A stretch of DNA of 54,684 bases, counting the filler, from Jimgerdemannia flammicorona (Eukaryota): assembly GCA_003990765.1 (NCBI GenBank). It is 2 parts of 2 records of this genome, joined end to end, with 100 filler letters (N's around TTAATTAATTAA, not from the genome) between each part and the next. Parts side by side here need not be neighbours in the genome. Positions count along the whole stretch, not along the records: positions 1 to 27,299 come from RBNJ01000642.1; 1 more part is not named here. One strand, given 5' to 3'. The notes beneath the pieces were generated by a model, which saw nothing but the letters and a program-made list of their open reading frames with translations, was not told the DNA's origin and did not search any database. The translations under genes and the position numbers were made by a program. This document shows, piece after piece, positions 6,155-45,594 of the stretch; the first letter of the stretch is position 1; each line of letters begins with the position of its first letter.

Positions 6155-7500
6155 TCAAGGATCTTGGCGAAAGGGGTTGGGAATAGTAAGGATAGCTATG
6201 ATTAATATCACTAGCGAAATTATCAAGCAACCGAGTCCTAGAGTTCGACTCATAAGAATACTCGTTAGGAAAATAAAAAAAAGCACTGATGGGAGTACAT
6301 GTATTCGCAATGCTCTCCAAAGGCGGCCCCTACGACCTCCTGCTTTGCGCAGGACAATTGTCATTTCATTTCTTTTGTTACGTATGGCAACGTCTAGTGG
6401 CGTCAGCCAATATTTGTCCATCGCGTTGATCTTGATGCGATCGCTTTTAAGAAGCTCTTCGGCTGCCTTCGTGAACCCTTCAATCGCCGCGAGATGCAAC
6501 GGTGTCCTCTTCGTTACAGACTGGGTGTTGACGTCAGCACCGTTTTTGAGGAGGTACGCCACAGTTTCCGAATACCCATTTGCCGCGGCCAAATGTAACG
6601 GCGTAAACCCAGCAAGGCTGTACGTTTTAACGTTATTCTGCGTCTGCTCTACTCGTGTTCTAGTAAAAGCCTTCAGATCAAGAAGGGCGCCGAATTCTTG
6701 GAGCACCTGTACCGCCAGTCTGTGCCCTTTGCTTGCTGCACAGTGCGTTGGTGTCCATTCGCTATAGGGGGTCATTCCAGCCTTCGCGTTCACGTCGACG
6801 TGGTATGTGTTGGCGCTCAGCACCATCATTCTTATCACCTCAGCTTGTCCGTACAGCGCAGCTATGTGCAACGACGTCAAACCTTCAGGCGTTTTGGCTT
6901 GCACCTTGGCTCCGTGCTCGACAAGGTACTGCACACAGTCAACGCTCCCGCTCTTGACTGCTCTGAGGAACGGCGTCAAGTCCTGCCAATCCGAGTTCAC
7001 GTCCGCTTTGAGTGGGCCGTCGTTGATCAGAATTTTCATGACATCAACATATCCCATTTCTACACTGACGTGCAATAGAATGTTGACGGGGACATGGTTT
7101 CTCCAGATACCGGAATTAACCTGTACTTGCCAATTTGACTGTCGATGCAGATCAGTTAGATATGTATTGGATCGAAGTGACTGAAACATGAGTTCCAACT
7201 TACTCTGTCAGTATTGAATCCTAAGAACGTGGCAATAACATTTAATCGGATTTCGGGTTCTGTGCCTTCAAGGTGCTTTGTAAACTTCACCTCTTCAATA
7301 TCATTGAGGATTAAATTGAATTTGTCCTCTGCGAAGTATAACGAAATAAGAAATATGTTTTCAGTCGACATGAGAGGTTAAATCAGGACGCTGAACTTAC
7401 CAAGGACATCACCGTCGCCAGTAACTTTGATTCCACTATAATAAATATTCTCAACGTCAATGTTTGGGTGCTCTTCGGCTGGACTTTGTGCACTCGACAT
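6155..7500 (-). CDS. Ankyrin-repeat protein with two C-terminal hydrophobic (TM) helices; 3 exons: 7500-7401, 7328-7204, 7138-6155 (~402 aa)
   Basis: ORF contains repeated ankyrin motifs (TPFLRAVKSG, TSLHIAALYGQ, TPTHCAASKGH, TPLHLAAANGY, TPLHLAAIEGF, TPLDVA). The C-terminus has two hydrophobic stretches (VLPSVLFFIFLTSILM; LGLGCLIISLVILIIAILTI). Two GTAAGT..CAG introns (72 and 65 nt, the second with a CTAAC branch site) join upstream exons in frame to an ATG at 7500. Confidence 0.9.
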
Positions 7501-12705: not shown

Positions 12706-13929
12706 TAAGATTAATTATTACGATAACAACGATTAACGACTACAGAACGACGACGACAATTATACAACGATGATTATAATGATAAATAACAATTATTACA
12801 GGACGGCAGTGAAGACAGTTATATAATGACGACAGAGGCGATCATAGAACAACGATGATAACGATTACAGATATATACTGACGTCACCCAAGTTTTATCG
12901 GTGTCTCGCATGATGCACATTGTGACTAGATCGTTATTATTTTTAAATTGACTGAACTTTGTTTAATATAAAATTTTAATTAGATAAATATGAAATGAAT
13001 AAATAATAATTAAATCCGAGTAACAATTAATATATTCAAATTAATATTAAATATTAAAGTTGTTTTTTATTTTAAATTCTACATTTTTGGTAAAATATAA
13101 TATATAATAAAAGATAAATATACTGAATATAAAATAACTATAGAAATCAATTATGTATAAAAATAATTCAGTAAATATAATTACTTACTGGGGATTTATC
13201 TACAATTCCGCAAAATGGCTTGGCTCAACAGAATCTGAGGGCAAGTGTAACGAACGAGAATCGAATTTTTGAAATTATACATCGACGACTAGCGACGTTT
13301 TAACCAATCGTCGCCTTGCGGCTGGTTGTCAATGAATAGTTTGTATTGTGGTCACAAAGTTTTGTTCTGTTTCAGGTCGGGATCATTCGGGGAGAACGTT
13401 CTGGGATGAAAGCCCGCAGACACGAGATGGTCTGGCTTAGCTCCATGATACCCTGGTTGGGAATTCGTGGAGATGGTATTAAAATGGCAAAAATACATAT
13501 AAGCAATGAACAGGAGGGCTCTTGAGATGTTGATTTTTTGGTGTGCTCCTTGGTTTCTGATAGCATTTTTGTCTCTAATAGTTCCTTCGCACACTTGTTA
13601 GAGCAAATCGGGTCGGGTTTAAAAAAGTTGGAAGATCAAGTGACATTCGTGCGTTCACATATATACTCATTTTGCGCTTCCCTCATAGTCACCCCGCCCT
13701 CAAACTCAATAAATTAACTTTTTATACTCTGCTGCGCGCAGTCTCGTGTCATACATGTGCTTGCAGGCAACCGGGGGCCAAAGGTACGCCGCCCATCGTA
13801 AAGGAAATTGTTAGTGTGCCACATAATGGAATGCAAAATGCGATTTCCAATGCTCATTAAAGAACACGACGCGCCCCCCCTAACCGGATCACCCATATAT
13901 TTTTCATTGTAACAATATGTCATACATTC

Positions 13930-16900
13930 AATGTGCCCTGCGCACACAGAGGTGCCCGGTATCTTTTGGTTGACTAAACCTGTTGTTACACAAATGTCTC
14001 TGAGTCGCCTATAAACAAATCCTCCCACGCAGTTATGCCTGTGCACTTTCCATGAGAGGTTAGCTGAAGAAGCTTCCGTCCAATCTGGGATAGTACTCCG
14101 AAGTCCCGGTTCCGACCGGGCGGGACCAATCCAAACGGAACCACGCCCTCGGAACCTTTAGGTCACAAAAACTGCACAAAAATCGTCTAGAGGGTAAAGG
14201 TCATAATGCCAAGCCATGAAATTTCGCAAAAAAAGACCGATAGTACGGATTGGGTCGAAAAAAACGATGTTAGTACTTTTCGTGTTAAGGCAGAGGTTCC
14301 ACGGTCGTTCTCCTAAGGTAACTTAGTACGCGAAGAAAACCGGTTTCATGTGTACGCTGGTTGACGTCAACACATCTTTGATTGTTATTGTTGTGGCTTT
14401 CGAACGACCCTCGAAATCCAAAGTCTCCAATATAACAACCATATACAAAAAGGAAACTAGCCTAGCAAATGCGCCGGTCCAAGCTCACCTCTGGCAACGT
14501 TTTCGACCAAGAGAGGACGTGCAATGTATGCTCAGTAAAGTATAACGACGACAGGGTGTTTGAAACCCACCTTGCCGGATGGGCTCATCGCAGGCGATTG
14601 GCCAGCCAGCAGGGCGGAGCCAGCATCACGAACGGTCCCTGCTCCGACCCAGCCGCGACCGTTCGTCTTTCGCGTGAAGTGAAATCGACCGAGCAGCAGG
14701 CCCGGACAAGTGAGCTCATTCTCACCGAAAAATTACGTCCGACAAAGTTTTCGTTTCTGTCCCAACCACTCCTGCCCCGGTCGTGACCGTCCGTCTATCC
14801 CTCTTGTCTTCCCTCTCCGGTCATCACAGCTCATCTCCCTCCCTTGTACCCTCTCCTTCCCGGCCAGGCGGCGAACACTCTCGACTCGGCCGCGACCGCT
14901 ATTATCGTTCCGGCGGCCGCTTCAGCCGTGAACCTTGTTCCACCCACGAACCTTGTTCCACACGTGACATTTTCGCCCGCTACTATTCCCTCCGCGACTA
15001 TTCCACCTTCGGTCACAACCGCGGCCTTTGATCCTCCTGGTCCAGCTGCCACAAAGAGGTACCAACCTACTTCTAATATTCGATTTTCGCATCCATTCAC
15101 AGAGTAAATAATTTGATATCTTCACTCTTCAATCGCAGTCGCAAAAGCAAGAAGCATCAAAAGAAGTTGACGTCCAAGTATGTGCCTGTTGTTGAAAGTG
15201 CTTTCACCCTTCGCACATCCATGCAAAGAGTAAATTCGATACCTTCACTCTTCAATAGTAGTCAAAATGTTCAATGTGATGACTGCCAGAGGGAATTCTT
15301 GAATGTCGGAGTGCTTGAAGAGCACCGCAAAGGCAAGAAGCACCAAAAGAAATTGGCATCCAAGTATGTACCTGTTGTGGAAAGTGCTTTCACCCTTCGC
15401 GCATTCACGCACAGAGTAATTTTGATATCTTCACTCTTTAATCACAGTCAAAATGTTCGCTGTGATGACTGTCAGAGGGAATTCTTGAATGTCAGAGCGC
15501 TTGAAGAGCACTGCAAAGGCAAGCAACATCAAATGAAGTTGGCATCAAATAGCGCCAAAATTTCCAAGACGACCTCCAAAAAACGGCGAACCAAAGCCGT
15601 GTAAGTCTCTGCTTGGTGCTATTACTATACACACTCCATTCGGCTTCAAAGCATACTTGATTTACCTTCACGAAACCCATACGTTTGACAAATTTATTTG
15701 CATTACAGGTTTTTCCATTGCGAGCTGTGCTCGCGGATTGTTGTGAATACTTCTGCGTTCAAAAAGCACTTGCTGGAAACGCCACAGTCCTTCACGGCGC
15801 GCTGGGTCTTTGATAGTGAATCGGCGCTCCAAAATCACCTGCTGAAGGATCATACGAACGAGACGATCGCAGCATGGGAAGCAGCATGGGAAGCATGGGA
15901 GGCATGGAAAGGAGCATTCCGAAGAGTTTTGCTGGAGGGAAATTTCATTCGAGAAACACGCTTTCCATGGCAGAGGTATGTCCTTTGTAAACTGCTTGTT
16001 GTCGTTTATCTGCATTCACGAGCTTATACCCATATTAATTAAGGTTCTACCTCGCAGGTCGCTAGTTTATTGTCTTACGTGTCCAGCTATTTTTGACACC
16101 AAGAAGGCCCTCAAGCAGCACTGCGACAACAGCCTGAAGCATCAACTACTGTTGGAATTCTATCACTGGAAAAAATCTACTGTGATGGGCAGGAGCATTT
16201 CCTTCTCAATTGCACCATTAGCGAGGTACAATAGCATTGCGTATAGATTCATTTGAATATCTGTCCGTGGCTATCCACAACTAACCCATCGCACGCACAA
16301 ACCGGCTCCGTCTCCAAGCCAAAAAAAGTGTAGGTTTGCCATTCCAAGACACGATGGTATTGAAGTCCGCTTTTGCAATACTTGCCAGCTCCATTATCGT
16401 ATTCCTCAACCGGTCAAGCACTACCTCAATCGTTCGAGACACCAAACGTTGGCGAGGCAGCAGGCGGATAAACATGCGGCCTTTGCTGTACAAGAATTTC
16501 AGCGGACAAAAGCCCGCTGCGTTCCACGTATTATTGCAATATTCAGCAGAAACCAACACATACACCACAAAATTTTCGATTCTCCGCACCACCAGTACAA
16601 TATTTCCGATTCTCCACACCAGCCATTGAAGTATTCCAACACAATCGACTTTGGCAACATTGACCCAAGGGAAAGAATGTGCCCTTACGACATCATTAAT
16701 ATTATTAACCCTTCGAAAAAGTCTCCCATCGCGCTAACTGCCATTCACCGCGAAAGCATCACATCCCCATTCGACATCTCAGTTCAGCTGCCAATAGAGA
16801 TTGCCCCCTTGGAGTCGACTCGTGTCGAAATTGCGTTCGACAAGCACGGCCATCCGAATGGCCATTATCTCGAGCATTTGACTTTCAAGTTCATAAACCT

Positions 16901-17670
16901 GTATGATGACGACGTTCCCGAGGACGTAATTCTCACCCTGGTAGCAACTCTGGGTGAACCCGAGCCCATTCCGAAGCCCGCGGTGGTCAAGAAGAACGAT
17001 CTCAACAACGACGCTCCGCCCGATTGCGACACCCTCGTGATGGGCGCTTGCTGGCCCCTGCCGAAATATATGCCAATTAAGAAGGTCCGCGAGTGGGTCG
17101 GATACGTGCGTCAGGATGATCGGTGGATCGGTCCCACCAAGATCGTGATCCAAGATGAGGATATGGCGGTCGCGAGCGTTTCGAAGGTGTCGAAGCCGGT
17201 TTCGCAAGATTCAGAGCCGGACAAATGGATACTGGAGAGGGAGGAGTAGATGTGGTGATGACGGCAGCAAAGCCCAGAAGAAAAGATTAGTTATACATTA
17301 AGAACTTACCCACATTTCCGTTTTTTTTTTTTTTTTTTTGGCAGTAGCTTGTTTATGCGTTCTCAAATTCCACAAACTGAAACCATTCAACCTCAGAAAA
17401 ATATTGAACAGTCGCGAGACACGGAGTCATCGTTTGGCAAAGTACACCAGCAAACAGACATGGCATTTTCCCCACTATGTCAAGTGCACACACATGTTGT
17501 GGAAGATGTGTGGAGAGCAGCACAGTGGGGAAGATGGCTGTGAGGATGAGATGATGCTAGTGTCAGTTTTATATAGGGAAATATTTTGAAATTATTTATT
17601 TTTACCTAAATACATACATTGTGCGGGCGATCTTCTTTTGAGCATGCAATGTCACCAATTCACTGTCATG
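13930..17670 (+). repeat. Tandem segmental duplication, unit 1 (upstream region + ZF gene A + 3' flank)
   Basis: Upstream (atgtgccctgcgca..., gagaggttagc.gaagaagcttccg, gacgtcaaca.atctttgattgttattgttgtggctttcgaacgac) and downstream (caagtgcacacac.tgttgtggaag) blocks recur at 18135-18770 and 22950-23425. Confidence 0.85.
14469..17249 (+). CDS. Multi zinc-finger (U1/matrin/JAZ-type C2H2) protein with C-terminal Ig-like region, paralog A; 8 exons: 14469-14709, 14830-15058, 15139-15177, 15262-15363, 15448-15600, 15709-15975, 16058-16225, 16334-17249 (~704 aa)
   Basis: Fingers CNVC..H(LAGWA)H, CDDC..H(RKGKK)H, CDDC..H(CKGKQ)H, CELC.., CLTC..H..H and CNTC..H..H. All introns are GT-AG and splice into one open frame. 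The last exon has the beta-rich 'IDFGNID...IEIAPLESTRVEIAF...GHYLEHLTFKF...LTLVATLG'. Confidence 0.8.
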
Positions 17671-18770
17671 TATTTAATGTCATGGATCCGTGACGGACGT
17701 TAACAAGTAGTGTACGATGGAATTTGAGGCACAAAGATAGGTGAGGAAATTAGTTCGTTGCACAGATTACAATGAACCTATGTGTACGTCATAATCACGT
17801 TACTGCTGATAAATAACGAGTTAAAGAATATATACAATGTCCGGCTGATTTTTCGGGTCCGGATTCGGACGAATCAGGCATTGGACCCGAAACGCCATAT
17901 CATAACGTCATGATTCTATCTGGATACTATGTATATACAATGACATTGCAATGAGCCTGAGATACATGATCTCACAGAAAACTGATAAAATTTATTGGTA
18001 ATATATATATAATGTTATGTCTTCCTCAATTTTAAATAATTACCGCGCATTTTAATTCCTATTTTTCAGGTCACTCAGCAGAATTGAACAACCATATTCC
18101 CTATCCATCCAGCCACCTGAAAATGCTTTTGCGTATGTGCCCTGCGCAGGCGGGGTGCCGCAGAAACTCTCGCGGCTAATATCTTTTTGGTTGCATAAAC
18201 AAGGAACAATGAAATCCTCCCACGCAGTTATCTTCCAGGAGAGGTTAGCCGAAGAAGCTTCCGCCCAATCTGGGAAAGTGCTTCGAAGTCACGGTTGGGA
18301 CCAGGACGCCCCCGATGCAAACGGAATCGTTTCCCTTTGTAACGCAGCGAGGAATAACCCAATTTTATTAATCTTTAGTTCATTCATTCAAACTGCAGGA
18401 TCTCTGGTATTCTAACTCAATAATGTTAAAGTCTGATCATCTGCTGCCGAGTAATGAGGGAAAACATCTAGCCAAAATATCAAGCCATGAAATTTCGCAA
18501 ACAAAAAAAAAAAAAAGGAAAGCCGAAAAAACGATGTTAATGCTTTTCGTGTTGAGGCTGCGGTTCCACTCTCGCAGTTTGTAAGGTAACTTAGTGCGCG
18601 AGGCTTCAAAAGAAAATCGGTGACGTCCGATTTCATGTGCACGATAGTTGATCTGTGTCTGACGTCAACATATCTTTGATTGTTATTGTTGTGGCTTTCG
18701 AACGACTCTCGAAATCCAAAGTCTCCAATATATCCAATATAACAACTACAAAAAGAAACTAGCTTAGCAG

Positions 18771-21700
18771 ATGCACGGGTCCAAGCCCTCCTCTGGCAGC
18801 GTTTTCGTCCGAGAAAGGACGTGCGAAATATGCTTGTTTAAGTTTTACAATGACACGACGTTTGAAAACCACTTTGCAGGATGGGTGCATCAAAAACGAT
18901 TGGCCATCCAAAACGGCAGAGCCAGCGTCGCAAACGACCCGCCTGCGACTGTTGGTCTTGCGCGTGAGGAGGTGGAATCAGCCGAGCAGCAAGCTCAGAC
19001 AAGTGAGCTCATTCTCACCGAATAAACCACGTCTGACAAAGTTTTCGTTTCTGTCCCAACCACTCCTGCCCCGTTGTGACCAGCCGTCCGTCTACCCCCC
19101 CTTGTCTTCCCCCGGTCATCACAGTTCGTCTCCCCCCCTTACGCTCTCTCCCTCCTGGCCAAGCGAGCACTCTCGACTCGACCGCGACCGCTATTGTCGT
19201 TCCGGCGGTAGTTCCAGCCGTCAACCTTGTTCCACCCACGAACCTTGTTCCACCCGTGACTGTTTCCTCCCCTGTGACTATTCCCTCCGTGACTATTCCC
19301 TCTTCGGTCACAACCCCGTCCTTTGAACCTCCTGGTCCAGCTGCCAGTCCCAAGAGGCCAAAGACCACAAAGAGGTACCACCGACCTATTTCTAATATTC
19401 GGCTATATATATCCATGCACAGAGTAAATTTATATCTTTACTCTTCAATCACAGCGAAACTGTTCGCTGTGATAACTGCCAGATGGAATTCTCGAATGTT
19501 GGAGCTCTTGAAGTCCACTGCAAAAGCAAGAAGCATCGAAGGAAGGGCAAAAATGTCCTGAGGGGATGCACCAAAATCGTGTATGTCTCTGCTTGACGCT
19601 ATTGCTATACACACTCATTTCGGCTCCAAAGCATACTTGTTTTACCTTTACGAAACCCACACGTTAACACATTCATTTGCATCACAGATATTTCCCTTGC
19701 GAGCTGTGTTCGCGGATCTTTATAAATGAATCTGCGCTCGAAAAGCACTTGCTGGAAAAGCCACGAACTTGCACGGTGTGCTGGGACGTGTTTGATAGTG
19801 AATCGGAGCTCCAGAATCACCTTGTGAAGGAGCATAGGAGCGAGCAAGATAAATCTGACATCAAAACTACGAAGGAGACGGTGAAAGAGCCAGGAAGTAT
19901 GGCAAGCAATCGTATCGCAGCATGGGAAGAATGGGGAAAATGGGGAGCACAGAAACCGGATAACTCTGTCATCAAAACTACGAAGGAGACATTGAAAAGG
20001 CCAGGGAAAAAGGCAAGCAACCGTATCGCAGCAGGGGAAGCACGGGAAGCATGGCAATCGAAGCCTATTATTGCAGAACAGCAAGCGAAAATTTCCGAAA
20101 CGAATTCCGAAAAATGGCGAACCGAAGTCGTGTAAGTCCCTGTTTGACGCTATTGCTATACGCATTCCAGTCGGCTCCAAATCATGCTTTTTTTAACATC
20201 CAAAATCACTTAAACGTGCATAGGAGAAAGCAAGCTAAATCTACCATCAAAACTATGAACGAGACGGCGAAAGGGCCGGTAGTCAATAGTGTCCGCTGTG
20301 GTGACTGCCAGAGGGAATTCGCGGATGTCGAAGCGCTTAAACAGCACCGCCAAATGCGAAAAATATTGTACCGCTACCCTCCCAAAGTCGTGTAAGTCCC
20401 TACTTGACGCTATTGCTCCCATTCGGCTCCAAATGATACTTGATTTACCTTCACGAAACCCACATATTAACGCGTTCATTTGCATTGCAGGTTGTTCCCA
20501 TGCGAGCTGTGCTCGCAAATCTTTATGAATGACTCTGCGTTCAAAAAGCACTTGCTGGAAAAACCACAGACCTGCATGTGTTGGGTCGTCTTTGAGAATG
20601 AATCGGCGCTCCAGAGTCATCTTGTAAAGGGGCATAGGAACGAGCAAGATAAATTTGCCATCGATACTATGAACGACACGGCGAAAGGGCTGGAGAGCCA
20701 TAGTATCCACTGTGGTGACGGCCAGAATGTCGGAGCGCCCGAACGGCACCACGAAAGTAAGGAGCATCAGCCGAAGGTGGTGTCAAAGTATGTACCTATT
20801 GTTGAAATTGCCTTCACCCTTCGTCGCGCCTACCCTGCCTAACCGCCACCACTCTCAAACAGCGCCGGAACAAACTCCAAAAAATGGCTAACCGAACTCG
20901 GGTAAGTCTCTGCTTGACATTGCGCACTCCATTCGGCTCCAAACCATATATATTTTACCTTCACGAAACCCACATGTTAACGCATTCATTTGCATCGCAG
21001 GTTTTTCCCTTGCGAGCTGTGCTCGCGGATCTTTATGAATGACTCGGCACTCAAAAATCACTTGCTGGAAAAGCCACAGACCTGTACCGTGTGCTGGGTC
21101 GTTTTTGATAGTGAATCAACACTCCAGAATCACCTTGTAAAGGGACATAGGAGCGAGCAAGATAAATCTGCGAAGGGACCGGAGGTCCATAGTGTCTACT
21201 GTGATGATTGTCAGAGGGAATTCCTAAATGTCGGAGTGCTTGAACAGCACCGCAAAGGCAAGAAGCATCAAAAGAAGTTGACATCCAAGTATGTACCTGT
21301 TGTGAAAAGTTTTTTCACCCTTCGTTGCGCTCGCTTGCCTAACCACACTTTCCAACAGCGCCAAAATTTCCGAAACGAATTCCGAAAAACGGCGGATTGA
21401 AGTCGTGTAAGTCCCTATTTGACGCTATTGTTATACGCACTCAATTCGGCTCCAAATCGTACTTGTTATTACCTTCACAAATCCACACGTTAAAATTTTC
21501 ATTTGCATCGTAGGGGTTTCCCATGGGAGCCGTGCTCGCAGATCTTTATGAATTACTATGCGCTCAAAAAGCACATGCTGGAAAAGCCACGGACTTGTCC
21601 GCTGTGCCAGGTCGTCTCTGATAATGAATCGGCGCTCCAAAATCACCTGAATGAGCATCAGAGCAAGCAAGCTAAATCTGTCATCAAAATGATGAAAGAG

Positions 21701-22948
21701 ATAGTGATAGAGTTGAAGGGGCATGGGAGCGAGCAAGATAAATCTGCCATCAAAACTACGAAGGAGACGGTGAAAGGGCCAGGGAAGCACGGAAAGCATG
21801 GAAAGCATGGAAAGCACGGAAAGCACGGAAAGCATAGAAAACATGGGAAGCATGGAAAGCATGGAAAGCATAGGAAACACGGGAAGCATTGGAAAGCATG
21901 GGAAGCACGGAAAGCATGGAAAGCATGGGAAGCATGGAAAGCATGGAAAGAATGGCAAGCTTGGAAAGCACGGAAAGCATGGAAAGCATGGGAAGCACGG
22001 CATGCGAAAATTTCCAAAACGAACTCCGAAAAATGGCGAACCGAAGTCGTGTAAGTCCCTGTTTGACGCTATTGCTATACGCACTCCAGTCGGATCCAAA
22101 TAATGCTTGTTTTATCTTCCATAATCGCCTAAACGTACATAGGAGAAAGAAAGGTAAATCTGCTATCAAAACTACGAACAAAACGGCGAAAGGGCTGGAG
22201 GGCCATGGTGTCCGCTGTGGTGACTGCCAGAGGAAATTCCTGAATGTCGGAGCGCTTGAACAGCACCGCAAAAGCAAGCATCAAAAGAAGTTGGCATCCA
22301 AGTATGTACCTTTTGTGGAAGTCCTTTCTCCCTTCGTCGCGCCTACTTGTCTAACCACTATCCAACAGCGCCAAAATTTCCGAAACGAACTCCGAAAAAT
22401 GGCGAACCGAAGTCGTGTAAGTCCCTGTTTGACGCTATTGCTATACGCACTCCAGTCGGCTCCAAATCATGCTTGTTTTACCTTCCATAATGGCCTAAAC
22501 GTGCATAGGATAAAGCAAGATAAATTTGCTATCAAAACTACGAACGAAACGGCGAAAGGGCTGGAGGGCCATAGTGTCCGCTGTGGTGACTGCCAGAAGA
22601 AATTCCTGAATGTCGGAGCGCTTGAACAGCACCGCAAAAGCAAGCATCAATAGAAGTTGGCATCCAAGTATGTACCTTTTGTGGAAAGTTCTTTCTCCCT
22701 TCGTCGTGCCTGCTTGGCCAATCACTACCAGAATGCCGATTACAAAGGCACTCCACCCAATAACGACTATGCCGATCAAGAAGGTCCGCGAGTGGATTGG
22801 ATATGTGCGCCAAGGTAATCGGTGGATCGGTCCCACCAAGATCGCGGTACAAGATGACGATATGGCGGCCACGAACGTTGCGAAGAAGTCGAAGTCGGTT
22901 TTGCAAAATTTGGAACCAGACGAACGGATATTGGAGGGGGAGGAGTAG
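18771..22948 (+). CDS. Multi zinc-finger protein, paralog B; 14 predicted exons: 18771-19002, 19125-19374, 19455-19580, 19688-20131, 20224-20391, 20491-20787, 20863-20901, 21001-21288, 21359-21406, 21514-22050, 22143-22301, 22369-22416, 22509-22667, 22732-22948; premature TAG at 22651 in exon 13; lacks the Ig-like region
   Basis: Repeated CELC..H, CTVC..H..H and CGDC/CDDC..H..H fingers. Donors are GTAAGT/GTATGT/GTGAGC/GTACCA and acceptors YAG. The terminal peptide MPIKKVREWIGYVRQ..RWIGPTKI is shared with paralog A. May be a truncated or pseudogenising allele. Confidence 0.7.
21784..22002 (+). repeat. Coding 9-bp tandem repeat (GCAYGGRAA) within exon 10 of paralog B
   Basis: Roughly two dozen units. 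Reads KHG, AWK/AWE or MES/STE depending on frame. One-base insertion near 21889. Confidence 0.9.
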
Positions 22949-23961
22949 CTGTGGTAATTACAGTAGCAGAAGAAAAGATAGATGTACATTCAAATGTTAT
23001 TCAATATGCTCATTATTGTTAAGAATTTTTCCTGTATTTCCCATTGTCATATCTTTTATATCTTCCTCTTGGTCCCAGACCTAAGTTATCTCATATTATA
23101 CTGATATAGTGGTTCAGTACATTTCTGAAATTTTGTGGTAATATCTCAAAATACTGGCGAATAGCAATGAAGGAATTCAATGTTCAAATTTTAGTTTGGC
23201 TCTATTTTTTTTTTTTTTTTTTTTTTTTCTTTCGTGGCAGAGTATCAATCACATTCACGACGTTTTCCACGCTCTTTCAAGTGCACACACGTGTTGTGGA
23301 AGGTGTGAGGTGAGAGTATGGCGGGAAAAATGGCTGCAAGACTGAAATGATGTTAGTATTGGTTTTATTATAGCGCAGGCGATTTTTCTTTTGAGCGGGT
23401 GACGTCACCAGTCCATTGTCACGTGTTTGGCGACTACCCAAGAATTTCTGCGGTTTAAAAAAAAAATCAGTCTTTCAATATGTGTCATTGAAGTGTTTTC
23501 TGTACTGAGGAATGCTCTATAATCACCAGAGGCCTACATGTATATATGTAGTGCTCCGAAAAATCGACCGGATGACGTAACCGTCTGGATGGTGAAGTCA
23601 TCAGAAACACGTGATAGGAAAGGCGAAGCGATTGATCTATGGAACTGAAGGCCTACAAAGTCTAGAAATCATAATCCCTACACAAACAACATCCTTGTTG
23701 CTATCCTTACTCGAAAATTGTTTCAATATTGTAATAAGTGTACAGTTACTGAGGAAACAATCAATGATTGAAATTTATAAGTGTGACCGCCATCATGTAA
23801 TTTCGTGAATGGGAGAACCATTGGCACAGGATGACATTCCGAAATCTTGTGCTAACAATCACTTAGAAAGGGTTTCAATGACCCTACATTTTTTCATGTT
23901 ATATTTACTTATACAACCTGTGGATGGCATTTGATTTTTTTTTATTTAAAAAAAAAAAAAG

Positions 23962-37100: not shown

Positions 37101-37849
37101 TGTGAGGCATGCCTTTATTAGAGTTCAACATTAGTGATGGCATCGAATGCCAAAGGGGTCCAGGCCAGGATCTGTGGACTAGTGGTTGGCAAGGAGTTGG
37201 AATTGGTGAGGAGTGGGACTGGCATGGGGTTTGGACCTGGAGTGCTGCAGTGAAAAATTGGATGCCGCCAAAGTACTGGGTAGTCTGGTGGCATGTCCTG
37301 AGGAGGAATGTGATGCTTAACTTCTGCTCAGGACACCTTGTTGTAGGGGGCTGCTTTGACTGCAAGAAGTGCCATAATGTCGGGCAGGAAGGGGGATTTG
37401 TACAGATGCCGGAACATTGGCTAGGGGAGTGTGAGGTGTTGGGAGACTTTTGGCAGGCCGTTGGGAACCGCTTGGGGGTAAGGCGTAGGGGTGATGATGT
37501 ACGGGAGAGGTGGGAGGACCTGAGGGATCGATTGATAGGAGGGGTTGGGGAGGAGTGGATTACTCTAGACTGGGTGTTGGCTATTTGAGTTGGGCTGGCC
37601 AGCCACTGGCTTTTTGTATTTGAGGAGGAGAAGTGGCCGAGCTTGGGGAGCCAGTTAGCAAGGTGGCAGTTCCTTATGGAGGATACATTGACAGGCTGGT
37701 GGCTTGGTTGGGGGCTGCAGGGAGGTCAGAGGCACTACTTGGTGGTGAAAATCTGTGGTCAGAGTGGTGGAAGAGTTGGAGTTATTGGTGAGAGGGTGGT
37801 CTTTATATGTGATGAGGTGGGGTGGGGCCACCCGATGGGGATCGGATAG
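34194..37849 (+). pseudogene. LINE ORF2: apurinic endonuclease - reverse transcriptase - C-terminal zinc finger
   Basis: APE motifs SLNVNG, LLQD, GGDFN, RIDWI and SDH. RT motifs APGEDG, NWRPI, LDQEKAYD, QGDPLSP, FADD and YLG. C-terminal C..C...H...C. One frameshift (~35480) and several point stops. Confidence 0.92.
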
Positions 37850-37950
37850 TGGGTGGTGATATTGTATACTTATTCATAGACTGGCAATAAAGACGGAGTC
37901 CAAGGGACTATAAAAAAAAAAAAAAAAAAAAAAAATAGTAATAAAAGATA

Positions 37951-40330
37951 CTGAATATCTGCTTGAGAGTTCTATTATTATACTCAGTTTGGTCATCTGT
38001 CTATGAGTAATAGACTATTGAGAACTTCAGCTTTATCTCTAGAAAATAAAGAATGCTTTCCAAAGTTACTAACAAATTTGGTATCTTAGTTAGAGATAAT
38101 AGTACTTAGTATACATATATATGTATTATATAGTCTGAATATCTAATTTAGAAATATTTTAGCAATCTTCAGAGCTATTGCAGTAGTCTTGATAGGTACA
38201 AAGTGAGTTTACTTACTAAGATAGTCAATGAATACTATATATTATAACATACTAGCTTAATAAAGACAAATTACAAAATTGGAACTACTATGTAGATTAA
38301 CTTAAGCCTTTAGTTACTTTGTCAAAAAGCAATAAAATATTTAATGATTTCTCTCAAAAATAGTTACAAGTTCTCTATTTTATATAATATAGATAATTTT
38401 TAGTGATTTTTTAATTAGATAGTAATTTTCTAGATAGTGCTAAATTAGTAGACTTCTCAAGTTCTTCAGGTTTAGTCTATTAAGTATACTAAGTATATCA
38501 GATAATTGGTTTTTACTTTTGAACTTTTCAGATAGAGATTTATTCACTTAAATTTCTAGAGTATTTTATATAGCTATCTGATTACTATTTGACTAATTAT
38601 AGAATATATAGTAATGCTATTTTAGGAAGAGAGTATCAGATATATCTGCTGAGTATATGGATACAAGTGTATTCTTAAGATACAGATCAATATATATATC
38701 TGATTTGATATATTTTACTATATTATATATATTATTTACTTATTATAGTATAATAGCATTCTATCCTATCTAGGTTTTGAGTAGCTAGATAATAAAGTCT
38801 ATTGTAATTTAATTATAATTATGGATAGAGATTGATAGAGATTACAGAAGTCTAGCTAATATCTTATTATTACTCTTAAATCTTTAATATACATTATAAA
38901 TATTTTGATATCCTTAATCATTTTTAACTAGTAGAATTCTCTAAAGATAAAATTATAGATTTTCTTAAATCCAAAGTATTCTACTATAAATATATTATAA
39001 AGTTTCTATATGATCTTAAGATAAAGTATATTATCTCTAAATAAATACTATCACTCTTTTATAGTCTTAGTATATGAGTCTATCTTAGTAGATAAATCTC
39101 TTAGTTATTCTTTTCATTAGTTCAGATATCTCAGTTTCTAGTTTCTAGTAGTATTAGAGAAAAACCAGTAGTGGACTATATTACTGATAGCAATTCTTAA
39201 TTAGTTGAGTAAAGTTATCAATTATCTTAACTATGAAGATAATTTCATCTTCTATATATCTTGAGAAATTATTAACCACTTAATTGATTTTATCTAAGAT
39301 ATACTTGATTTCTATATTAAAGAGAATAATGATTTTTATCTATAATACTTATTTATATATTAGCATTGGTTGAGTATAGATATATTTAAGTATATTAATA
39401 TATATAGTCTATAAATAGCTATCTTAGTAGGAAGTAACACTATTTCTAAAGAGTAGTTATTATAGCCAGAAGTTTCTTTTTATAAGTAATATATTGAGTT
39501 TTCACTAGCTTGAGCTTCTGAGATAGATAGATTACTAAGCAGTCTTCTTGACTAAGTATAGTACTAATAGTAATATATAATATATCTGTGGTCGGAATAA
39601 AGACCTAGTGGGGTCTGATGTAATCAGTACTGGAGTCTTAGTAAGTAGTCTTTTGAGGTAATCTCTAGCTTTTATATAAGCAGAGATCTATTCTTTTTTT
39701 TATATCAGAATAATAAGTAAGATAATAATTATAGAGTATCTCATAATCTCTAAGGAGTATTAAAGAAACTTGAGAGTAGTAGAGATAGAAATATCCTGTA
39801 GGGCTAATATCTTCAGAGATCTATATTAATACTATCTGCTGAGATAATATATCTCAGATACTCAATATAGTCTTAATAGAACTTATATTTACTTACCTTA
39901 ATATAGAGCTAATATTCATATGTATAGTAAAATCAGTATACTTTAGAGATAAGTATAATATAGTTCAACTGTCTCACTATAGATCAATATATCATCAATA
40001 TATACTAAGACATATATATTAAGTAGTAGTTTAAAGATATTATTTATGAGATTCTGAAAGATTACTAGTATATTAATCAGATTAAAAGATATAACTCAGA
40101 ACTAATAATATTTAAACTATATCCTAAAGGCTGTCTTTTCTATATTTTATCAATGAGAATCTTATAATATCTATTTTATAGATTCAATAGAGAGTATGCC
40201 TTAGTCTCAAAAATCTGATAAAGTAGCTCATCAATTCTTAGGAGAGTATATTAGTTCTTGATAGTAATCTTATTGAGAGCTCAATAGTTAATATATATTA
40301 TAGTGAGTATCCTTCTTCTTGACAAATAGG
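37951..40330 (-). mobile_element. Highly decayed Ty3/gypsy pol (RT-RNaseH-IN), continuation of 31140-32031
   Basis: Minus strand 'LFVKKKD...ALNKITIKN*YTLLRIDELL...EKTAFR...FQNLINNIF...VLVYIDDILIYS'. Confidence 0.75.
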
Positions 40331-43300
40331 ACAAATATATCAAAGACCCACTATCAGTATGAGGCCATCAAGATCTACACCCCTAAGATCTGATCAATAC
40401 TATCCCAAATATCACCAACTTCTCCCACCAGTCTCCTCCAGACTACCACACTTATAGAGTTCTCTGGTCTTCTTCCCTCAGAGCCCCAATACTCCTCTAA
40501 GCTCTACCAATAATCTTCTACTCTAAGCCAAGATATGCTCTGATGTCTGAACTACCTTTCCATGGAGTTCAGTATACCAATTATAATCCTGATAACTATC
40601 TATCTCTATTCAGTCTATCTGATAGCTCAATATCACATTTCTTCTCAAAAACTGCCACCAAACTACCTAATACCTAGAGGGTACTACCCAATATAAGGCA
40701 GCTACCTAATTCCAGACCTGATCCCACTCCCATATATTATTAATTCCAACTGCTTACCAACCAACTGGCCATCTCTCAAGGGGTCCTGTTCTAGTCTATT
40801 CTATGATCTTAATTAAGTAATATTCTTTTAATATTCTACCACCTACTGAAAGTAACTCCAGCCTCCACCACTGCTACCTGAAGTCTATATCCTCCCCAAT
40901 ATCAGACTCTACCAACTGTCTCAATCTGAAGTAGTCTTCTTATATTCTTCCACTCCTCACTCCTAGAGCAGAACCTAATCTTCTAATTGTCCATTGTTAG
41001 CTTGCCTCAACCTTCTTCTCTCAGCTCTACAAGACAGCACTCCTACCAGCTCTGAAGAGCCCTCAATTACTACTGAAAGTCAACTAACTCCAAGCCCCTA
41101 TGAGTAACCTACAGTACCTATGACTTCCATCCAATCTGTGGCCACCTCTCTCACTAAAGCCATTCTTCAATAGTCTTCTTCAACTGCCACACCACCCACC
41201 CAGGAAAGTCCAAATAATATCTCAAATACCATAACTTTGATAACTAGTATATATTCAAAACCACTACTCTCTCTATTAGAGAGAAGTTATGCTCAGATCA
41301 GTTTATTAATTACCTTCTAATTTCTGTACCATTCCACACCACCACTCTCTTGGCAGAACTGTTTTATATATCAAGAACCAAATACTCAAATATCTGTCAG
41401 TCTCTCTAGTAGGCACAACTTACTCAAACCCACTCTCAGCCCCTAAACCAGCACCAAGCTTCAAAGTCTCACACTTTCTCCAATTCAACTTTGCCCTAGC
41501 CAATCTATCATACTGTCCAATTTCCTCCTATAAAATATCCACATTCTCAACATCTAACTCTACAATTATATTATCTGCAAAAGCCCTGAACTTCTAAACC
41601 ACCTCTCCCATATGCAGTCTAGTCAGTCATCCCTTCAACTTGACCAATATAGGCTCCAAAGAGAGAACATAAAGGAGGGGGGAGAGGGGATCTCCCTGTG
41701 GAACTCCTCTATCCAAAGTGAACTCTAGACCATATCAGCCATTTATTAGAACTATAGCTCTATAGTTATATACTAATCTCATAAGCCTTCCAATCTCTTC
41801 CATATCAAACCCAGCCTTATGCAATATAGCCTTTAGATAACACTATCATACCCTGTCATATGCCTTCTTTTGATCTAAGAAGACTATCTGCCTATCAATC
41901 CAATAACTCCTACAATCCTCTAAGATATTCTGTACTCAAGCAGTACTGTTCTTAATCTGCTGCTCCATTACAAAACCCCTCTGCTCCTCACTCATCAGCC
42001 TGCCAATCCACTGCTACATCCTCTCAGCTAAGACCTTTGAGACCAACTTTCTATCAACATTCAATAGCATAATTGGCCTCTAGTTCTGCCACACCCTCTT
42101 ATCATCTTTCTTCTTATATAATAGAGAAATCAATCCTAAGTCACCATTACCAATCTACTGGCCTCCTCTAATATAAAGTTGATTATTATAACAAGCTAAG
42201 TACTAAACTCAGCCTAGAACTCCTTCCAAAACTCCCAAGATAGCTCATTCTCTCTAGGTGATGAACTACCCAGTATCTCCTGCAAAACCCCTAACACCTC
42301 CTCCAAGGATACTCTGCTCATCACAAAAGCCCCCATCTCTGACAATGCTACTACTAACTAGTTCTGCACCAATGGAGCATTCTCAACATCCAGTATACCA
42401 TCATTCCCACCCTCACCATCATTACTCTAAAAGACCTACTATTGCCCAAAGATCTCCTCAAGCATATCAGCAATATCAGAGACCTTGACATCATCCTCTC
42501 ACAAGACTGAAACCCAGCTATACTATACTCTTCTGGTCTTCAGAACACTCAATAGATACTTGGTTAGCTACTATCTTTCCAGTCACTAGGCTCTCAGATG
42601 TATCAGAAGGCCATCTACTACTCTGTTCTCTACCTCTCTCATATCTAACTATAGATCAACCACCTCCTTAGCTAGCTGATGATATTCTTCCCCTATTAGT
42701 ACCCCTTCTTCTAATAACTACAACTGCCACCTCAGGTCTCTCTCAGTCCTCTTCTCTTTATTCTTTCACTCCTTTCTAGTCATTTTTCCAACATCACACC
42801 AGTAAGCATCTACTAAGTACTTAAATCTGCCCCACTATTTAGCAACTGATAGACCACTATCCACCCACCTTATAACTTCCTGCCTGGCCAAAACTACAAA
42901 TTGTTCTCTCTTCACTAGATATCTGAGCAAGGCCACATTAAGACACCAATGCCCCCCTCCACTACTAACTGTCTGGAACCTTCTATATATCTCTACTCCC
43001 CAATGATCTAATTATAAGCACCACTATACCTCCATAATGTCTAGTATATTACCCCAATATTCTGATACTAGTACTCAATCAATCTTTGTCCTCCAGCCTA
43101 TTACCCACTGGATGCCACCTAGTGAAGGGCCCCGATCTATTCCCAGCTTATAGCTATATATCATCTATCAGTCTCATGCCTTTCTCTACCTGAAACCACT
43201 AGGATAGTCCCTGAGAAACTGCTGCTCCAGCCCCACCATCAGACTGGTCTAGAGCAGATTATACACTATATTAAAATCTCCCTCTAAAATATCCAACCCA

Positions 43301-45195
43301 ATACTCTCAAGCCAACTACTCCTTTATCCATTGTTTTCACTCTCTGCCAACTGCTGGTAAGTACACCAAGCCCACCAAAAGTCTATCTCCAGTCTTTCTC
43401 TTCAATCTTCCCCACACTAGTTAACTACTAAAAGTATCCACATCCATTAGCTCACTCTTACTGACACTAACTAGAATATCAACTTGCTTATTCCAACTGA
43501 TACTACCAATCTATTTCTTACTCTACTTCTTATAGTCCTGCACATTATAGATCTGAACATCCTGAAAAAATACTACATCATACTTCCTGACCTTTAGCTA
43601 CCAGAATAAGTACTGCCACTTGACTCTATTTTATTTACTATTGATATTAATTGATAAAATATATAAACTATTCATTATTAAGAATTGAGAGTTTATAGAT
43701 CAGCTATAACTACCACCATCTTCTCAGCTCTATCATTAATGATATCTCAATACTTCTTACAGACAGTCCTTCAGATACACTCTCTATTAATACTACCACA
43801 GAAGAAGTCCACCCACTTTAATGCTATCTTTCTGATATCCACTATTCTGACTTCATCCAACTCATACCCCTCATTCTCCAAAAGAGCCATCACTATAGCT
43901 ATCACCAACTTTAGCCCCTATATTGCCACATTAAGAAATCTCTCTCACATCTCTAGAGATTTCTGAAATATGTCCACTTCCTTGATGTCTTTCTCCACAA
44001 ACTCCTCAAAGATAGCCTGGAACCAACCATCTGCCATGATCATCAAGGGTTCTGGAGTGGCAGACCTAGGAGTCCTGCTCAACTCCAGAAGTAATTCTCT
44101 ATCTGCAGACACATCAGAGGCAATCTCTACTAAATCCTCCTCCTCAGAGACTTTATCTAGCTATACTACCTCACTAGCCTCAGGGTATTTTCAGTATATA
44201 TTTACAGCTCCAGTCATATTTATATCCTCCATCTGAGTCTCTGAAACCATCTTGATAATCTCCTCAAAATCTTCTCTTCTCACCTCCTTTCTATTAGCCC
44301 ACTTTCCCTTTACTAGTACATGTATAGAGGCTTCTATGCCTTTCAGCTATGAGAAGGATACCTTAGTTGCCTCCACCCCTTCCATCTAATTCCTATCAAT
44401 TGCAACTCTTGCAGCCTCCTCCTCTGTAGACTCTTGCAATATAGCCTTAAAATGCTCCCAATTCTCCTTATACTATCATCTCTTCTTTCTATTAACCTGA
44501 ATTCAGATCTAATTCTTAGTGAACTCCTCTCACTTTCTCTTCCACAAGACCTTTACTACTTCATACTCCTCTAGAGCAATCATCAACTTCTCCTCTTCCT
44601 GTTCAGAACCTTTTTTTCTCTAAATCTGATATTCCTACCATTTAATATAAATAACCTCAGGCCAGTCTTGCCCCAACTCTATCACTTTCTTTTTCTCCAA
44701 CTGCACCATTGCCTCATAGTTACCATTTCTCAACTTTATACTCTCTCAAAATATGAAGCTGAAATCTACCATCTCATCAAAACTCTCCAGAGCTTTGGCC
44801 ACTACTACCTTCATCTCCTGTCTACTCAGTATCAGCAATTCTTTAACTACCAGATACACTATACATGGGTCCCACTGCAGATATCTCACTATCCCAATCT
44901 TAATATTCTTGACCATCAGTCCTTTCTTCAGAGTCTTCACTATCATCTCCTCCTCAACAAAGTCAATCTCAACAGCCTCTACTGATAGAATAAATCTCAA
45001 TAACTCTGCCCTCACAATCTCCTCACCCACCAGTCACAAAACTTTCCTGACTGATTGCTCTAGCTTCAAGAAGTTGGCAGAGATAGCCCACATTGATACT
45101 GACTTGTGAAAGAAAGGATGCACTACTATTTCATTAGTTCTAGTAGTCAAAGTCATCCTATTCTTGCTCCCAGAAACCCCAGCCAATATCTTGCC
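40331..45195 (-). mobile_element. Second L1/Tx1-like LINE, diverged relative of 32049-37935; decayed, poly(A) end missing
   Basis: ORF2 start at ~43675. Minus-strand QGDPLSP (~41690), AFADN (~41575), LDQKKAYD and NW/*RPI. ORF1 remnant 44746-45030. Confidence 0.85.
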
Positions 45196-45199
45196 AGTA

Positions 45200-45407
45200 G
45201 TTTATTATTATCTATCTATCTTTATTGTCTATCTATCTTTATCATCTGATCTCTATTATCTGTCTACTATTTATTCTCCATTATCTATCTATCTTTATTA
45301 TCTATTTATCTCTATCATCTGTCTACTATCTATCCTCTATCATTCATCCACCTCTATCTATCTATATTATCTATCTATCTCTATTATCTATCTACTTTTA
45401 TTATTTG

Positions 45408-45473
<66 letters not shown>

Positions 45474-45594
45474 CTATTTTATAGGCTTGAGATCTCTTTA
45501 TTAACTAATCTATAATAAATATATAGTTCTTATACTATACCAGTAGCCCCACTTCAATCTATTTATTATCTGTCTATCTTTTTTTTCTTTCTAT
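45200..45594 (-). repeat. Degenerate (CTAT/ATAG)n tract, long poly(T), and a short minus-strand LINE 3' tail (~45408-45555)
   Basis: Minus strand reads ...tatttattatagattagttAATAAAgagatctcaagcctataaaatag(A)n, resembling the 3' end of the 32049 LINE (attcatagactggcAATAAAgacggagtccaagggactata(A)n). Confidence 0.65.

Follow-up and report, generated by a model that had tools for sequence, protein, structure and literature searches.

We analysed a 54,684-nucleotide stretch of DNA (the window) from Jimgerdemannia flammicorona (GenBank assembly GCA_003990765.1), in which positions 1–27,299 come from record RBNJ01000642.1, positions 27,300–27,399 are filler between parts and all later positions belong to another record. 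The window is eukaryotic, with short fungal-type GT..AG introns of 64–122 nt, and carries two tandem zinc-finger genes on the + strand, paralog A (14469–17249) and paralog B (from 18771). Paralog B is probably a functional gene, or was one until very recently, which is restricted to its lineage and encodes a 926-residue multi-zinc-finger protein, the array of which grew by the copying of exons together with their introns. We rebuilt the gene models of both paralogs from the sequence: B has a coding sequence (CDS) of 926 codons in 13 exons (18771–22653), whilst A has an intact open reading frame (ORF) of 709 codons. The duplicated segment exceeds the genes themselves (~14017–17576 versus ~18212–23373 by self-BLAST).

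Exon symmetry and transcript support

All 11 exons from 3 to 13 of B (126, 444, 168, 297, 39, 288, 48, 537, 159, 48 and 159 nt) are divisible by three and lie in phase 2, and the same symmetry holds for all five of exons 3–7 of A (39, 102, 153, 267 and 168 nt), as a first-pass annotation of this stretch had reported. That annotation was also correct in describing duplicated modules, which we recovered by self-BLAST, Tandem Repeats Finder and alignments, in stating that the module types differ in number and order between the paralogs (self-BLAST, gene models and alignments), and in its picture of a reshuffled array. In our analysis units of exon plus intron were duplicated, deleted and fused, always in frame. 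It described the duplicates as recent, which is true of the last two units (94–95% identical), whereas the other copies share 72–91% identity, most modules falling at 74–88%. The 11 exons of B are not independent, their introns being copies of about three ancestral introns, and the presence of phase 2 throughout most likely follows from copying of a few phase-2 ancestors, as only such copies keep the frame. Phase symmetry would then be a survival condition of the duplicates and not evidence of a splicing code.

Two public runs from two studies (X1 and X2) contain about half of the sampled words, and although their database label is only a guess, we treated both as RNA because their contigs lack introns. 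The splice evidence comes from short assembled contigs and comprises the 15 joints listed out of 24. Introns 1–11 of B account for 11 of these 15, with GT..AG at the predicted positions and eight of them seen in both runs, and a further joint joins the predicted donor of intron 13 to another acceptor, giving support to 12 of the 13 introns (1–11 and 13). B is thus expressed, and its transcripts are spliced at the predicted sites. For A, intron 7 (16226–16318) was seen in X2 as the joint 16223->16317 (cut +2), loose ends in X2 at 15058 and 15137 fit the junction between exons 2 and 3, and one joint is an A–B chimera (15178->20510) with non-canonical TA..TG ends.

That the array might be an assembly artefact, a collapsed or mis-joined repeat, we consider very improbable. 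The repeats are 74–95% identical, runs of N lie 4.3 kb downstream, and the copy number of the last 366-bp unit is beyond the reach of a check with short contigs; however, every module copy has diagnostic substitutions of its own, and independent RNA contigs from both studies, colinear with exons 1-2-3, 4-5-6 and 8-9-10, bridge these exons with 0–2 differences per piece, from which we take the assembled array to be real. No change in copy number between sources was seen, as the window, X1 and X2 share one exon order.

The first-pass annotation went further, proposing that any exon can be skipped and that combinatorial nucleic-acid-binding specificity could result. The symmetric phase-2 exons would in that case be interchangeable cassettes, with alternative splicing and ongoing reshuffling producing varied combinations of fingers and specificities, which we regard as improbable. 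It is true that the array has been reshuffled over evolutionary time, that all 11 internal exons are 2-2 and any skip would stay in frame, and that a CATAG|G which the derived units do use as an acceptor persists inside every exon in which a finger pair and a single finger are combined (D+S, see below), so that an alternative in-frame 3′ site is possible in principle. In addition, nine of the 24 joints lie outside those listed and could include alternative splicing, which counts against our own reading as well. Yet none of the 15 joints listed is an unambiguous skip, the contigs of both runs keep the constitutive order found in the window, and exon skipping is rare in fungi relative to intron retention. 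A single skip-like joint (22050->22509) would omit exons 11 and 12, but its short side is 28 nt, exons 10 and 12 share their final 34 nt, and contigs built from 31-letter words overlap by about such a length at a branch; we rejected it as a skip, as it is equally explained by the normal junction of exons 12 and 13, which is otherwise absent among the joints listed. With this sole candidate ambiguous, skipping as a working mechanism is unsupported, the mixing and matching of exons by splicing has no support in the available data, and splicing of B looks constitutive in the data seen. The proposed combinatorial specificity is weakened again by the fingers, about five of 15 of which lack zinc ligands, whilst the single fingers are of the JAZ type, described in Pfam as binding double-stranded RNA (dsRNA). 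Fingers of this type recognise the shape of the helix and do not read its sequence.

The 3′ end of the gene differs from the first-pass model. An ORF had been drawn to 22948, but the in-frame TAG at 22651–22653 in exon 13 ends the CDS earlier, and the last intron, thought to end at 22731, instead has its acceptor at 22747|22748 in X1 (one contig). This joint (22667->22749) has one letter 'A' between its sides, which we interpret as a G>A difference at 22748 directly behind the AG acceptor. Beyond the splice the frame runs K-H-S-T-Q-stop, so that even read-through of the TAG would leave the conserved tail untranslated; the X1 contig over 22621–22667 lists no difference at the TAG. The untranslated last exon (22748..23100, + strand; joint in X1, tblastn) contains an out-of-frame remnant of the ancestral C-terminal tail, which at 22769–22945 has 69% protein-level identity to A 17070–17246 (tblastn). 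Here X1 lacks one nucleotide at 22797 and has a T>G difference at 22946 (the formerly presumed stop codon), as expected for an untranslated region.

The two runs differ in what they cover: X2 includes both paralogs, whilst X1 includes B alone and has a depth of 0 over all of A (14300–17533 versus 18710–23100). This gap may represent a difference of strain, condition or sampling, and we do not take it as silence of A. Contigs of X2 also hint at a further allele or a third member of the family: the sequence of a loose end at 16317 is similar to the 3′ part of A exon 7 but differs from it in places, and one joint leads from the end of B exon 11 (22301) to A 16834, with 23 other letters between.

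Constraint on the open reading frame

Several comparisons argue for B as a functional, fast-evolving gene, in which selection would act on the open frame and on a subset of modules whilst other modules drift. Spliced frame 0 has a single stop, at codon 927, and the other two frames have 34 and 54. In a neutral simulation (1755 aligned module nt, 195 substitutions) 7.8 stops were expected versus one observed, and 0.24% of 5000 simulations were as low (P about 0.002), a figure that is approximate and optimistic, as shared ancestry inflates the substitution count. Distinct indels are multiples of three in 12 of 12 cases in exons versus 2 of 13 in introns, five exon gap events (4, 122, 1, 1 and 5 nt) being set aside as non-homologous segment ends or the replaced tail of exon 5. 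Ratios of non-synonymous to synonymous substitution rates (dN/dS) between finger-pair modules (D) of B were 0.16 for exons 4 and 8 (Fisher P 1e-4), 0.15 for exons 6 and 8 (P 6e-5) and 0.32 for exons 4 and 6 (P 0.012), and between single-finger modules (S) 0.15 for B exon 8 and A exon 4 (P 0.002) and 0.21 for A exons 4 and 5 (P 0.007). The low ratios among the modules of B exons 4, 6 and 8 imply purifying selection after intragenic duplication, and so do those between the S modules. The frame is also kept downstream of a microsatellite in exon 10, despite a change from KHG to AWK.

A number of observations weigh against B being functional. No constraint was detectable on the D modules of B exon 10 and A exon 6, on the S modules of B exons 3, 5 and 11, or on exons 1 and 2 (dN/dS 0.5–1.8, Fisher P 0.13–1.0), and module introns are as conserved as module exons (80–88% for both). 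From translations read by eye, five of the 15 fingers of B lack a zinc ligand, with losses in the S finger of exon 5, the second D finger and the S finger of exon 6 and the first D finger of exon 10, plus the first finger of every D. Paralog B has moreover lost an immunoglobulin-like (Ig-like) domain and a translated tail, and the microsatellite has expanded within exon 10. Between A and B, mismatches occupy 78 of 454 positions in exons 1–2 (17.2%), compared to 11 of 189 in introns 1–2 (5.8%; Fisher P 8e-5).

These observations could also describe B as a duplicate of A in decay, still transcribed but on its way to becoming an unprocessed pseudogene, with a drifting array and an open frame that would reflect the youth of the copies. 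The domain and tail are gone and the stop precedes the ancestral one, exons 5, 6 and 10 lack zinc ligands that they once had, 213 nt of microsatellite lie within the coding sequence, exons are conserved no better than introns, with dN/dS near 1 in several modules, and X1 has the 1-nt deletion in the former tail. We consider decay unlikely all the same, though it deserves serious weight: 926 codons are open over 13 exons, stops are depleted and exon indels are all in frame, purifying selection among the modules of exons 4, 6 and 8 is significant, the frame survives the KHG to AWK change inside the microsatellite, and B is expressed and spliced in two studies, with X1 covering B and not A. A broken frame lacking constraint, the signature of a pseudogene, was not what we found; yet B no longer has its ancestral C-terminus, and some of its modules show no constraint.

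The excess of divergence in exons over introns has three candidate explanations, patchy gene conversion, constraint on the introns or accelerated evolution of the exons. In the 260 nt upstream of the ATG, 20 of 222 positions differ between A and B (9.0%), and synonymous sites differ by ~24%, above introns 1–2 (P 1e-5). Over its first ~75 nt, intron 1 hardly differs between the paralogs; Rfam returned no match in 13500–23600 at E<=1, so that this conserved intron does not belong to any RNA family known there.

Modules and growth of the array

The array is composed of three types of coding module and three types of intron. Module D is a Krüppel-type finger pair (FPCELC...H-LLEKP-x-TC-x-VCW...H-x4-H), S is one JAZ-type finger (C-x-DCQREF...H-x5-H) and L is a 15-residue linker (AKISETNSEKWRTEV). 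The basic unit of ~510 bp comprises a D+S exon of 288 nt, intron a (~70 nt), an L exon of 48 nt and intron b (~100 nt), and self-BLAST gives an offset of 510 between 20382–21170 and 20892–21680. Unequal recombination between these units copied exons with their introns, and later in-frame deletions fused or shortened exons.

The youngest tandem duplication (22007..22727, + strand) is a 366-bp unit, found by Tandem Repeats Finder in 2.0 copies at 94% identity, which consists of L, a 92-nt intron, an S′ finger exon and a 67-nt intron; in A the same program finds a 186-bp unit in 2.2 copies. The 92-nt intron, type b′ (20132..20223, also 22051–22142 and 22417–22508, + strand; alignment), is made up of the first ~68 nt of intron b followed by 24 nt of former D-exon coding sequence. 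By alignment, a deletion of 162 nt took away the end of intron b together with ~122 nt from the start of the D exon, and the acceptor of b′ is the AG of the old codons CAT AGG, with the phase unchanged. The 366-bp unit stems from this deletion, through which an intron came to end in what had been coding sequence. Two introns of A are chimeras of intron a and intron 2.

The exons of B, all on the + strand, can be followed along the array. Exon 1 (18771..19002) starts with the ATG at 18771 and its translation contains one U1/JAZ-like finger (C-x2-C-x12-H-x5-H); its joint to exon 2 (19002->19125, GT..AG) is present in X1, the contig of which begins at 18743, adjoining adapter sequence. Exon 2 (19125..19374) is Pro/Val/Thr-rich, of low complexity and without a Pfam match (joints 19002->19125 and 19372->19453, cut +2). 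Exon 3 (19455..19580) is a single JAZ finger, module S (Pfam zf-C2H2_jaz; flanking joints), and exon 4 (19688..20131; joints 19580->19688 and 20131->20224) combines a D module with a W/E/K-rich stretch and a linker L, which is fused on without an intron, as it is in exon 10. In exon 5 (20224..20391; joints) an S′ finger is fused to the end of L and its last His is lost, whilst exon 6 (20491..20787; joints) is a D+S exon in which both the second finger (C-M-C) and the JAZ finger (CGDGQ, 12-nt deletion) have decayed. Exon 7 (20863..20901; joints 20787->20863 and 20900->21000, cut +1) is an L linker with a 9-nt deletion. The best preserved D+S module is exon 8 (21001..21288), with three fingers (Pfam, phmmer against the PDB), followed by the L linker of exon 9 (21359..21406), the joints of which (21288->21359 and 21406->21514) occur in both runs. 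Exon 10 (21514..22050) holds a D module with its first Cys lost (FPWEPC), the 9-nt coding microsatellite (21785–21997) and the fused L. The S′ finger of exon 11 (22143..22301; joints 22050->22143 in X1 and 22301->22369 in both runs), the L linker of exon 12 (22369..22416), which ends in the same 34 nt as exon 10, and the S′ finger of exon 13 (22509..22667), with the in-frame TAG that ends the CDS, complete the coding array.

The microsatellite of exon 10 has 23.6 copies of the 9-nt motif AAGCATGGA, read first as KHG repeats and, after an internal frame change, as AWK/AWE repeats. It includes 10 Trp within 78 residues, and shorter W-rich runs occur at the equivalent place after D in B exon 4 and A exon 6.

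Finger types and predicted binding

The single fingers belong to the Pfam families zf-C2H2_jaz and zf-met and the pairs to zf-C2H2, with gathering scores of 22.6 bits for zf-C2H2_jaz and 25.2 bits for zf-C2H2 (PF00096) as cut-offs. Scores for zf-C2H2_jaz were 29.8 bits in B exon 3, 29.1 in exon 4, 60.0 in exon 8, 27.1 in A exon 4 and 27.6 in A exon 5, whilst B exons 1, 5, 6 and 11 fell below the cut-off. The zf-met family gave 52 bits for B exon 8 and matched exon 1 below its cut-off (E 0.0017), and zf-C2H2 gave 32.1, 25.3 and 36.0 bits for B exons 4, 6 and 8. The JAZ ligand set is complete in B exons 1, 3, 8, 11 and 13 and A exons 4 and 5, and it is broken in B exon 5, which has no second His, and in the S finger of exon 6 (second Cys to Gly, 12-nt deletion).

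Module D aligns with the tandem fingers of CTCF, ZBTB24, ZNF568 and PRDM9 in solved structures, with the EKP linker in register, and CTCF and ZBTB24 fingers are the top PDB matches of B exon 8 by phmmer. The alignment to CTCF and ZBTB24 has a 4-residue gap where the last His of the first finger should be. The two fingers of the pair do not both have C2H2 ligands, the first having no second His in five of five copies, and its absence from every copy shows the loss to be old. Of the second D fingers, those of exons 4, 8 and 10 are intact, whilst exon 6 and A exon 6 have broken ones. The B protein is predicted to be a nucleic-acid binder, with double-stranded or structured RNA as the most likely target of its JAZ-type fingers. 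A tCWCH2 motif was considered for D and rejected, as the Trp follows the second Cys (CTVCW) and does not stand between the two Cys. Structure prediction of B exon 8 from a single sequence was unusable (mean predicted local distance difference test score, pLDDT, 51.6).

Paralog A and MOV10-like helicases

Paralog A has eight exons on the + strand (14469–14709, 14830–15058, 15139–15177, 15262–15363, 15448–15600, 15709–15975, 16058–16225 and 16319–17249), which encode fingers, an Ig-like domain and a C-terminal tail. In its exon 3 (15139–15177, 39 nt) a deletion has left no more of an S finger than the tail (RKSKKHQKKLTS), yet the exon is still spliced in. An exhaustive phmmer search of the last exon against 1.84 billion representative proteins yielded only four matches at E<=0.001. 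The first (P0001) is the gene model of A itself (99% identical), the second (P0002) a 200-residue relative, 71% identical to exon 7 and the last exon, and the third (P0003) a repeat protein, which we took as noise. The fourth (P0004), which its source assigns to Endogone sp., is a protein of 928 residues with MOV-10_beta-barrel, Mov-10_helical and AAA_11/AAA_12 domains, the last a superfamily 1 (SF1) helicase. By BLASTP, residues 121–210 of the A last exon match its residues 105–192 (E 4e-11), directly after the N-terminal zinc finger of the helicase, and residues 252–274 match 862–884 at its C-terminal end (E 0.003), the two matches being colinear. The C-terminal domain of A proved homologous by hhalign to the Ig-like N-terminus of a MOV10-like helicase, with a probability of 95% (E 3e-8), and a 72% relative of P0004 (P0005) has two N-terminal JAZ-like fingers. 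A language-model search pointed to PapD/ASH/HYDIN-type Ig domains (scores 0.91–0.92), as a lead only, and a structure model of the last exon from a 3-row alignment was too poor to confirm the fold (mean pLDDT 30.9). The Ig-like domain was found in A only, not in B.

We infer that A is a helicase-less derivative of a MOV10-like gene and that B is a further derivative, in which the Ig-like domain was traded for more fingers. The source of both would be those parts of a MOV10-like RNA helicase gene that lie outside the helicase, namely N-terminal fingers of the JAZ/U1 type, an Ig-like domain and, at the C-terminus, a short tail; A would have retained all three, whilst B lost the Ig-like domain and its tail is no longer translated. 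No helicase core, beta-barrel or helical domain matched in the 16 exon translations or the 19 long ORFs of the window, and tblastn of the window with P0004 and P0005 found the Ig-like part and the tail but no helicase remnant. Two points count against this descent, the weakness of the tail match (E 0.2–0.35 in window-wide tblastn) and the dependence of the helicase link on one distant protein pair or lineage. A search for longer homologous proteins gave no match for the A last exon or for B exon 8, which is weak evidence only, and in metagenome contigs there were no relatives of B exon 8 among 94 pattern matches and none of alignment A2 among 70.

A more specific role can be imagined, in which both paralogs branched off, without the helicase, from a MOV10-like gene of RNA silencing, and B, now a fast-evolving, expressed array of dsRNA-type and Krüppel-type fingers with tryptophan-rich repeats attached, serves as an adaptor, sensor or decoy in RNA-based control of the retroelements with which this genome is filled. 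Exons 1–2 of B diverge from those of A about three times faster than introns 1–2, and exons that outpace introns are a pattern of venom and effector genes under arms-race selection; tryptophan-rich repeats like those of exon 10 resemble Argonaute-binding 'hooks'. We hold this role to be doubtful, with the odds well against it. Were it true, the intron-bearing modular build would allow fingers to come and go fast without breaking the frame.

Comparison with known systems

The single fingers of A and B (C-x2-C-x12-H-x4-6-H) are like those of JAZ/ZNF346, ZFa and U1-type dsRNA-binding proteins (PF12171 zf-C2H2_jaz, PF12874 zf-met), and as in JAZ/ZNF346-type proteins several fingers are spaced by long charged linkers. 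Unlike in those proteins, however, Krüppel-type pairs and W-rich repeats stand among the fingers, each finger has a phase-2 exon of its own and several have decayed. Binding of dsRNA by the A and B fingers is a prediction.

With the MOV10/SDE3/Armitage-type SF1 helicases (P0004, P0005), A shares an order of JAZ-type fingers, Ig-like domain and C-terminal motif (W.GY/F V.Q...W.GP), but A, B and the window as a whole are without helicase core, beta-barrel and helical domain, and B is also without the Ig-like domain. At most, then, the paralogs are offshoots of the helicase family and not members of it.

The arrays of KRAB-ZNF and PRDM9 proteins, which evolve by unequal recombination, have in common with B the Krüppel-type fingers, the EKP linker in register and fingers that are gained, lost or left to decay. 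The usual expansion of a zinc-finger array takes place within one exon, and in KRAB-ZNF and PRDM9 genes the whole array lies in one exon with one 84-nt finger as the repeat unit. The unit here is instead 366–510 bp with two introns, and the first finger of the pair lacks its fourth ligand in five of five copies. With titin and nebulin repeats, Dscam clusters and Patthy's phase rule the array shares duplication of exon plus intron and a single symmetric phase class. Animal modules are commonly phase 1-1, whereas here the phase is 2-2, the introns are fungal-type and the joints listed gave no unambiguous case of alternative use of the copies. A literature search on MOV10 and fungal zinc-finger genes and on fungal tandem exon duplication brought up no paper on such a gene within the part of the literature it reached, which does not exclude that one exists.

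The repeat unit of B, carrying introns of its own, leaves in the sequence a record of duplication, of exon fusion by in-frame deletion and of the conversion of coding sequence to an intron end. As such B is a clean natural example, from an organism whose introns are short and fungal-type, of intron phase limiting which exon duplications survive. The likely MOV10-like descent, together with exons that change faster than introns, offers a testable link to RNA silencing or genome defence, and even if the protein were inert the locus would remain useful as an expressed gene midway between innovation and decay.

Surroundings of the locus

The first-pass annotation placed the array beside a nest of transposable elements. 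This is a fair description, as the retroelements are real, although they lie several kb downstream, with the first recognisable one ~5 kb past the end of B: a gag-like zinc knuckle ORF (27930–28889, − strand), an endonuclease ORF (34164–35111) and a reverse transcriptase ORF (35459–36820), both on the + strand, and a dUTPase ORF (49583–50083, +). Upstream of the paralogs there is an ankyrin-repeat ORF (6155–7207, −). Two runs of 44 N (27300–27343 and 27356–27399), ~4.3 kb downstream of B, were read as assembly gaps and sit in a very AT-rich stretch (GC 0.22 at 26–27 kb).

Strand composition is strongly skewed in two parts of the window. A LINE-like (long interspersed nuclear element) element on the + strand at 32000–38000 has 37.8% G and 15.2% C (GC skew ~+0.45), and the stretch 40000–45500 has 10.2% G and 27.9% C (GC skew about −0.5); BLASTN at E<=1e-10 found no similarity between the two.

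Finally, an element of ~125 nt lies upstream of both paralogs (14017–14140 and 18212–18326, 78% identical). The − strand translations of its two copies resemble each other (...DW.EASSANLSWK...), and it may be part of the duplicated segment or a small repeat element.

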